Shown here one piece after another: positions 60,972 through 62,019 of a DNA stretch of 64,000 nucleotides (positions within the stretch are counted from its first letter, which is position 1; the number at the start of each line of letters is the position of its first letter). This DNA is from Escherichia coli. GTDB lineage: Bacteria; Pseudomonadota; Gammaproteobacteria; Enterobacterales; Enterobacteriaceae. The stretch lies in assembly GCF_044647545.1 (NCBI RefSeq), contig NZ_CP172818.1; one strand, given 5' to 3'. The notes under the pieces are model-generated. The model made no database searches. It was not told the DNA's origin and was given only the letters and a program-made list of their open reading frames with translations. A program made the translations under genes and the position numbers.

Positions 60972-60981
60972 TAAAAAAATT

Positions 60982-61012
60982 CCCGGCAGCGTGTCAGTTG
61001 CCGGGGAGGCTG
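60982..61012 (+). terminator. Putative terminator hairpin downstream of yqhH
   Basis: CCCGGCAGCGTGTCAGTTGCCGGG inverted repeat followed by a weak T-run. Confidence 0.4.
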
Positions 61013-61039
61013 TTTGCTAAGAAAAACCAAACATAAGAC

Positions 61040-62019
61040 ATGATTATCCGCTCAACCTGTTTTTTTTCTCTCCTTCAACGAAACTCAAAAAAACGATAAT
61101 GAAAGAATAAATTGTTTCAACCATTGACCAATAATACGATATACCAATAATGATGAATTCAGTCCCATTTGCGAAGGAAGACCCCTGGCAAAATGCCCTG
61201 GTAAATAATATTTTTTGGTCCCTCGTCCTTTCCTTTCTGATAAAAAAAACAAAACACAAACCAAAGCGCGAACAGGCTGTGGTGGGTATCAAAAAAAAAC
61301 ACACAGAACATGGGGGCGAGTGAAAAAGAAAACAAGTGCAAATAGAAAACACGAGAGGGGACGAAACCCCAAAAGCGAAGGGAGAAAAAGAAGGAGAAGA
61401 GAAAAAAGGAGGGGGGAATAAACGCTTTTCTGAAAACGCACAGCGAACAAAAAAAAAATGAAAATAGGTTGAATTATAAAGAAAATATATTATAAAAAAA
61501 AGAGAAATTGTTAAAGAAGTGGTGATTCCCCCCGCCGAAGCGAGGGTATGCGGGAGAGGGAATTGAATAGAAAATGGTTTTGATTTTTGAGAAGAGAAGA
61601 AAAGGTCAGGAAAAAAAAAAAAAAAAAAAAAAAAAAAAAAAGAAAAAAAAAAAAAAAAAAAGAAAACAAAAAAAAAAATTTTTTATATTTATACCACTCG
61701 TCCTCGTAAGACAAAAAAAAAAAAAAAAAAAAAAAAAATTTCTCTTTGAAAAAAAAAAAAAAAAAAAAATTAATAAAAAAAATTGAAATTGAAAATAGAA
61801 AAAAAAAAAAGAAAAAAAAAATTTTTGATATATAATAAAAAGGGAAAAAAAAAAATAAAATTTAAGTCAACGGGTTGGCCGGCGGTCGACCACCCTTCTA
61901 ATTAACTATTTTTAAATAAAAAAACAAAATCGATTCTTTATTTATTAAAAAAAAAATAAAAAAAAATAAAAAAGAAAAAAAAAAAAAAATAAATAAAAAA
62001 AAAAAAATTAAAGACACCT
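61040..62019. repeat. A-rich low-complexity block with 20-30-nt poly-A runs and A/G-rich simple sequence
   Basis: Directly visible; the only ORFs encode poly-Lys/poly-Phe and are not credible genes. Confidence 0.7.

Follow-up and report, generated by a model that had tools for sequence, protein, structure and literature searches.

An A-rich tract between yqhH and ygiQ of Escherichia coli is most probably a corrupted copy of a natural two-gene segment

Results

Organization of the yqhH-ygiQ region

The DNA analyzed here is a stretch of 64,000 nucleotides from E. coli (the window), and close to its right end the genes yqhH and ygiQ enclose a tract of unusual composition. The features at this locus are as follows:

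60714..60971, + strand: yqhH, intact, encoding an 85-aa lipoprotein (open reading frame; 100% identical to strain IMT16316 and listed as yqhH by the RefSeq records that match)
60974..61006, + strand: terminator hairpin of yqhH (cccggca...tgccgggg), the final normal sequence ahead of the tract
61007..61307, + strand: garbled tract, recognisable part, corresponding in a BLAST alignment to positions 2208-2583 of the IMT16316 locus (L001)
61308..61600, + strand: garbled tract, A/G-rich middle, colinear with a real segment in a way that is visible to global alignment only
61601..62018, + strand: garbled tract, end dominated by poly-A, consisting of A-runs with residual colinearity (z=6.7)
62019..64000, - strand: 3' part of ygiQ, intact and running off the end of the window (stop codon at 62020-62022; open reading frame; 1,982 of 1,982 nt identical to IMT16316)

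The first-pass annotation had reported an A-rich tract with poly-A runs at this position, and such a tract exists as described, with both of the runs given as examples correctly placed (61611-61641 and 61713-61738). The limits of 60972-62019 do enclose it but have to be narrowed, as 60972 marks the yqhH stop codon and the sequence is normal through 61006. The anomalous part comprises 61007-62018 (1,012 nt) and ends one base before the stop codon of ygiQ. Similarly, the description as A/G-rich applies to about 61300-61600, and elsewhere the tract is A-rich or nearly pure A, so that its order from left to right is A-rich, then A/G-rich and finally nearly pure A interspersed with T. Positions 61006-62018 consist of 52.3% A, 19.5% T, 15.8% G and 12.3% C (GC 28%), with GC dropping to 0.125-0.2 in 200-nt windows, compared to about 24% A and about 52% GC in the clean part of the window. 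The longest A-runs are found at 61611-61641 (31 nt), 61643-61661 (19 nt), 61713-61738 (26 nt), 61749-61769 (21 nt) and 61975-61989 (15 nt), accompanied by several others of 10-13 nt. All homopolymers of at least 10 nt in the 64-kb window fall into this tract or into two other anomalous blocks. As the longest homopolymer in the remaining 54 kb has 9 nt, the tract is no chance fluctuation.

No gene, IS element or structured RNA was recognised in the tract, in agreement with the first-pass annotation. Its open reading frames do not exceed 102 aa and are spurious, many of them poly-K or poly-F, and a search of both strands of 60800-62200 with the Rfam 15 covariance models gave no match at E<=1. 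An insertion sequence or transposon was rejected as an identity for the tract, which contains no long open reading frame and only low-complexity repeats.

A natural two-gene segment at the same site

The flanks with yqhH and ygiQ are present in 5,423 of 5,426 complete E. coli genomes, none of which covers 80% or more of the query. The best matching genomes are ST648-type strains such as IMT16316, in which two annotated hypothetical genes part yqhH from ygiQ. This natural segment has a length of 1,570 bp (L001 2208-3777; NZ_CP023815.1 2652538-2654107 in IMT16316), consists of unique sequence with 39% GC and 32% A, and encodes proteins of 305 aa and 115 aa (WP_022646126.1 and WP_022646127.1). 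It occurs intact, with the open reading frames annotated, in 129 of the 5,426 genomes at 93.7-100% identity. In K-12 a mere 6 nt separate the yqhH terminator from the ygiQ stop codon. Two variants of the natural segment are found in NZ_CP034389.1 (RS571), where an IS1 is inserted, and in NZ_CP101866.1 (LP5-1), which is 93.7% identical with partial coverage and carries three annotated hypothetical genes.

A pairwise BLASTP comparison of the 305-aa protein (L001 2252-3169, corresponding to about 61040-61700 of the window) with the neighbouring YqhG gave E=7e-5 over residues 24-134 (about 120 aa), and there is a weak Pfam match to DUF3828 (E=0.055). In NCBIfam and PADLOC neither protein of the segment has a match and the PHROG result is negligible (E=0.039); for the 115-aa partner no family match was obtained in Pfam, NCBIfam, PADLOC or PHROG. 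Judged by these similarities, the 305-aa protein is a distant YqhG/DUF3828-like relative, and the pair looks like a small uncharacterised two-gene module that was inserted beside a paralogue. Among the papers searched, none names both yqhH and ygiQ. In biological terms, there is nothing unusual about the locus, a two-gene insertion specific to certain strains.

The tract is a lossy copy of this segment

In a local BLAST comparison with IMT16316 the window is 100% identical up to 61006, riddled with deletions up to 61307, without detectable similarity thereafter, and 100% identical again from 62019 to its end. The yqhH terminator hairpin of the window equals that of the ST648-type genomes, including the two hairpin bases that differ from K-12, and the departure from ST648-type sequence follows directly after GCCGGGG. 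The right flank shows 0 differences in 1,982 nt and the left flank 2 SNPs and one 5-nt indel over about 19 kb, whereas more than 40% of the positions of the tract are lost or changed against the same reference. Among the complete E. coli genomes the best database match to the tract covers 39% of a 571-nt query at 71.9% identity.

A global alignment revealed that the tract is colinear with the natural segment throughout (z=18.3 compared to block-permuted controls), and the same type of control yielded z=11.8 for 61308-62018 against L001 2584-3777, which is the part beyond the reach of BLAST, and z=6.7 for the last 418 nt. The longest common subsequence of tract and segment has 893 of 1,013 nt, compared to 769-783 in the controls. 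The recognisable part up to 61307 represents the upstream region and the 5' third of the 305-aa open reading frame, with start codon and reading frame destroyed by errors that are mainly deletions and in which G is the first base to go. The poly-A-dominated end from 61601 to 62018 represents the 3' end of this frame, the 115-aa frame and the terminator beside ygiQ, all of them collapsed, so that neither the 305-aa nor the 115-aa frame is present in the tract. Even the final bases GACACCT still follow the real AACAGCGAAT. Therefore, what had been taken for an unrecognisable simple-sequence insert is a colinear, degraded copy of the 1,570-bp two-gene segment known from the 129 genomes. A database match to a known element, which the first-pass annotation had regarded as evidence against an artefact, does exist, but it marks the tract as a corrupted copy and not as real DNA.

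The loss is strongly dependent on the base. Of the template bases, 85% of A, 39% of C, 45% of G and 42% of T are retained; A is never substituted, while for C, G and T losses by deletion amount to 44-50% and conversions to A to about 8-9%. Insertions amount to 12 nt only. As a result, the tract is 36% shorter than the segment (1,012 compared to 1,570 nt) and the number of A is 530 compared to 509, with T, G and C about halved. In the densest poly-A stretch there are 66 A compared to 53 in the template, which means that some conversion to A is required besides deletion. The fraction of matches per 100 reference nt declines from 1.0 to 0.76, 0.78, 0.69, 0.65, 0.66 and 0.50, continues at about 0.5 and then jumps to 1.0. 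Adenine-directed mutagenesis by a diversity-generating retroelement, which would make A of the template the most frequently altered base, was considered and rejected, as the pattern is the opposite one, with A best preserved and the changes consisting of deletions of C, G and T and of substitutions to A.

Two further garbled blocks in the window

Two more blocks of the window are anomalous:

24779..32703: degraded cluster of about 8.3 kb upstream of yghO (acyl-AMP ligase, epimerase, ACP, spt, lptG/F-like, YtfJ-like, yghQ)
40978..42031: degraded IS3-family element with a 46-nt upstream spacer, between yghU and hybG (by comparison with ST648-type genomes)

An intact IS3-family element is located between yghU and hybG in 69 ST648-type genomes. 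The copy in the window has about 1 kb compared to about 1.46 kb of the intact element, and its profile runs from a collapse to poly-T and poly-C through a mid-element recovery to 94-99% identity and a renewed decay to an abrupt return to 100%. This block contains a poly-C run of 31 nt and a poly-T run of 12 nt, and G is wholly absent in 41015-41150.

The 8-kb block has a best identity of 83.8% to any of the 5,426 genomes and contains no open reading frame of more than 182 aa, where genes of 350-570 aa belong. Clean islands of 200-500 nt alternate with stretches carrying 30-35% in-register substitutions, and the block re-synchronises in register at least six times. The noisy sub-blocks are visibly smoothed into runs and show no codon-position periodicity of the substitutions, which would be a sign of recoding or of a divergent homologue. 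Furthermore, a 446-nt piece of the acyl-AMP ligase gene, which is single-copy in ETEC and ST648 genomes, is rendered twice, 422 nt apart (24964-25243 and 25387-25634). In the first copy, nearly all positions (275 of 280 nt) form a subsequence of the real sequence, and retention is 100% for A, 89% for C, 54% for T and 47% for G. The second copy could have been made from the first, as in a loop of a model, or rendered independently of it; the similarity of the two is 0.855, and independent base-specific deletion channels are expected to give 0.849 +/- 0.021. Lineage-informative sites are kept inside the block, with a single switch from ETEC-type to ST648-type near 29.1 kb, and this preservation indicates that a real template underlies the noise. 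K-12 IS5 sequence was considered for the start of the block and rejected; its colinearity is z=-0.5, and the 8 of 12 nt past the edge that resemble the end of IS5 are not significant.

The window as a whole is a mosaic of lineages, with 6787-24778 being 99.95% identical to the ETEC O6:H16 strain 99-3165 and 32704-64000 about 100% identical to IMT16316. Natural recombination, a mixed sample or a chimeric reconstruction could each account for this mosaic. The region 1-6791 (nupG, speC, yqgA, pheV, yghD and a yghE-like gene) has intact open reading frames and does not exceed 98.0% identity with any of the 5,426 complete genomes; its 105 transitions and 25 transversions compared to the best match look natural. 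At 6787-6791 a K-12-type gspD-gspL deletion junction abuts ETEC-type sequence, and the ETEC strain 99-3165 has the full gsp cluster. Going by this arrangement, the junction may have been imposed by a K-12-like scaffold.

Block edges coincide with K-12 breakpoints

In an alignment to K-12 MG1655 the homology breaks at 24778|32723, 40979|42031 and 61007|62019, and these synteny breakpoints are matched to within 3 nt by five of the six block edges. The last good base ahead of the 8-kb block precedes the position of the IS5 insertion in yghO of K-12, a place at which the ETEC and ST648 genomes are uninterrupted; the right end of this block is the sixth edge and falls about 19 nt before the breakpoint. 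In the IS3 block, errors set in with the first base past the divergence of K-12 and ST648 downstream of the yghU stop, 46 nt before the end of IS3, and the errors continue to the first base in common with K-12. The noise of the yqhH-ygiQ tract likewise begins at the first and ends at the last base without a counterpart in a K-12-type genome. In addition, there are small errors in otherwise clean sequence at structural junctions of K-12, namely at 6789 (1-nt loss), 9078/9090 (T-to-C change and 1-nt loss) and 52902 (5-nt loss). Taken together, the edges and the small errors indicate that the corruption maps onto sequence that is absent from K-12, and sequence that K-12 has is reproduced with the strain's own alleles.

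Discussion

Origin of the tract

We consider it very probable (about 0.9) that the tract is a non-biological, corrupted copy of the known 1,570-bp segment. The preference of the first-pass annotation for an artefact over biology is borne out by the colinear, corrupted copy between perfect flanks, and natural divergence is excluded because near-perfect flanks step to more than 40% change at single-nucleotide edges. A point on the other side is that a loss of 40-50% of the bases greatly exceeds the usual consensus error of long reads. What the pattern shows is a noisy, mostly deleting and base-selective channel that acted on a real template and was confined to non-K-12 segments. In this channel about half of all C, G and T were lost and most A survived; some bases came out as A and next to nothing was inserted, so that the output is shorter and collapsed to poly-A.

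As to how the corruption arose, we see about an even chance, arguing from the pattern of the errors, that the sequence was reconstructed on a K-12-like scaffold, with non-reference insertions filled from poorly registered or raw noisy reads. Positions that can be aligned to the scaffold would then have been called accurately with the strain's own SNPs, and large insertions absent from the reference would have received the noise. A toy model takes noisy copies of the real segment (about 1,570 nt), anchored at their left ends but not aligned, and decides each column by vote. Its output is shortened, has an A content of 0.45-0.55 with poly-A runs of 20-68 nt, loses C and G preferentially and decays from left to right. 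The fit is qualitative, with T over-retained, and the model gives no account of the total loss of G at 41015-41150 nor of the clean islands. A simple blur toward the locally commonest base was accordingly rejected as the full mechanism, failing on the retention of T and on this loss of G. The mid-element recovery of the IS3 copy to 94-99% and the clean islands of 200-500 nt, neither of which has a K-12 anchor, also speak against a scaffold, as does the one block edge about 19 nt before the K-12 breakpoint.

It is conceivable but unlikely that the tract, possibly together with the whole window, was machine-generated or synthetically corrupted, for example by a genomic language model infilling the stretches it knew least. 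A model of this kind would slide into low-complexity collapse and then re-lock onto conserved sequence, and the product would still not be real DNA. The homopolymer attractors (poly-A of 31 nt in the tract, poly-C of 31 nt in the IS3 block), the left-to-right decay of the tract, the ligase piece rendered twice, the noisy sub-blocks smoothed into runs and the mosaic of ETEC-like (99.95%), ST648-like (about 100%) and, in the first 6.8 kb, at most 98% identical sequence are all in line with such an origin. Low-complexity collapse has been documented for Evo 2 generation, where one and the same base takes up 5-10 kb or more once 300-400 kb have been generated (bioRxiv 10.64898/2026.01.17.700093). 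The tract resembles this collapse in its homopolymer drift and directional decay, but a collapse of several kilobases after hundreds of kilobases is unlike what we observe: the runs do not exceed 31 nt, a real template is followed and the return to perfect sequence is in register. Free generation works without a template and would be recognised by the lack of re-synchronisation in register, yet the tract keeps to the real segment right down to the final base and falls back into exact register, as does the sequence after each of the other blocks, with six or more such events inside the 8-kb block and lineage-specific alleles kept within the noise. Moreover, flanks of about 19 kb and 18 kb with 99.95-100% identity to particular strains would call for near-perfect memorisation, combined with failure on segments of the very same strains. 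A variant of machine origin in which a model infilled real sequence stays among the candidates. Less probable still, in our opinion, is a de novo hybrid assembly made with no reference, in which a single very poor long read, or a few of them, spanned each patch. Short reads could not have been mapped to patches with so many errors, and polishing would have mended everything else and left these raw. Polishing with a mapping threshold would indeed give the bimodal error of the 8-kb block, which switches sharply between 0% and 30-50% every 200-500 nt; a dropout that consists of deletions only and depends on the base looks like missed signal, and the duplicated ligase piece might be an unrecognised read overlap. 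This explanation, however, leaves the coincidence of five of the six edges with K-12 breakpoints to within 3 nt, including the K-12-specific IS5 site, unaccounted for, and the yqhH-ygiQ segment, being unique with 39% GC, is easily assembled from short reads.

That the tract is real DNA, left over from the two-gene segment after extreme natural decay or hypermutation and enriched in A-tracts by an unnamed mutational process, seems highly improbable to us. It does lie at the exact site of the natural segment and is colinear with it, and sequence alone cannot prove that a molecule does not exist. However, no neutral process gives such a step at single-nucleotide boundaries, from 0 differences in 1,982 nt on the right and 2 SNPs and one indel in about 19 kb on the left to more than 40% changed positions in between. 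In addition, the 129 natural carriers are all 93.7-100% identical with no intermediate forms among them, two unrelated segments of the window are damaged alike, and an exact 41-mer of the tract is absent from the species-representative genome collection and an exact 40-mer from the metagenome collection that were searched. It would take a recently acquired island that was shredded in place by a sharply bounded, strand-asymmetric process deleting C, G and T and sparing or creating A, which we regard as equally hard to believe; if true, this process would have left A-runs of 20-30 nt while the adjoining core genes stayed untouched. The idea of an extreme promoter-distal A-tract, put forward in the first-pass annotation for the case that the sequence is real, is excluded in practice by the contrast between the near-perfect flanks and the more than 40% difference in the tract. 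Its other suggestion, an engineered spacer, or a cassette scar between yqhH and ygiQ, has a probability close to nil. Odd composition and the position in a convergent intergenic gap are in its favour and nothing else, but the tract can be traced to a natural template base for base, a search allowing 3 mismatches gave no FRT site, there is no similarity to 72,556 plasmid records, no primer, scar or vector sequence is present at the edges of the tract, and the same damage is found at the IS3 copy and at the 8-kb cluster.

Consequences for the reading of the window

With a corrupted copy as the preferred reading, about 10 kb of the 64-kb window (24779-32703, 40978-42031 and 61007-62018) have to be considered corrupted, and findings inside these blocks, such as odd repeats, broken genes, extreme composition and missing open reading frames, should be treated as noise. 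The K-12-like structure of the left part of the window, for example the gsp junction at about 6787-6791, deserves suspicion as well. The tract is therefore a data-quality flag and not a biological discovery. Perfect flanks around a middle that is colinear but shortened, together with base-selective loss and edges at synteny breakpoints of a reference, provide a diagnostic that can be reused.

Comparison with known systems

Natural A-tracts, curved DNA and UP-element-like AT-rich DNA of E. coli resemble the tract in being A-rich and intergenic. Natural A-tracts are, however, short (about 4-6 nt) and helically phased, in contrast to runs of up to 31 nt in a window that otherwise, outside the noisy blocks, has no homopolymer of more than 9 nt. 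With the ST648-type yqhH-ygiQ segment the tract has the insertion point in common, with edges agreeing within about 1 nt, identical flanks and colinearity over the whole length. It differs in length (1,012 compared to 1,570 nt), in A content (52% compared to 32%) and in lacking both the open reading frames and the terminator on the ygiQ side, and it is far outside the identity range of 93.7-100% that the 129 natural carriers span. Agreeing in position and colinearity and departing in open reading frames and identity, the tract is, judged by its sequence, a damaged image of this segment rather than a variant of it.

Poorly reconstructed non-reference insertions occur in reference-anchored or weakly polished long-read consensus sequences. 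The damage in the window is much heavier than in these, and the clean islands and the mid-element recovery of the IS3 copy are not predicted by a simple model of this type. The likeness lies in errors that are found only where the reference has no counterpart, are bounded at breakpoints and dominated by deletions, next to sequence that is accurate elsewhere.
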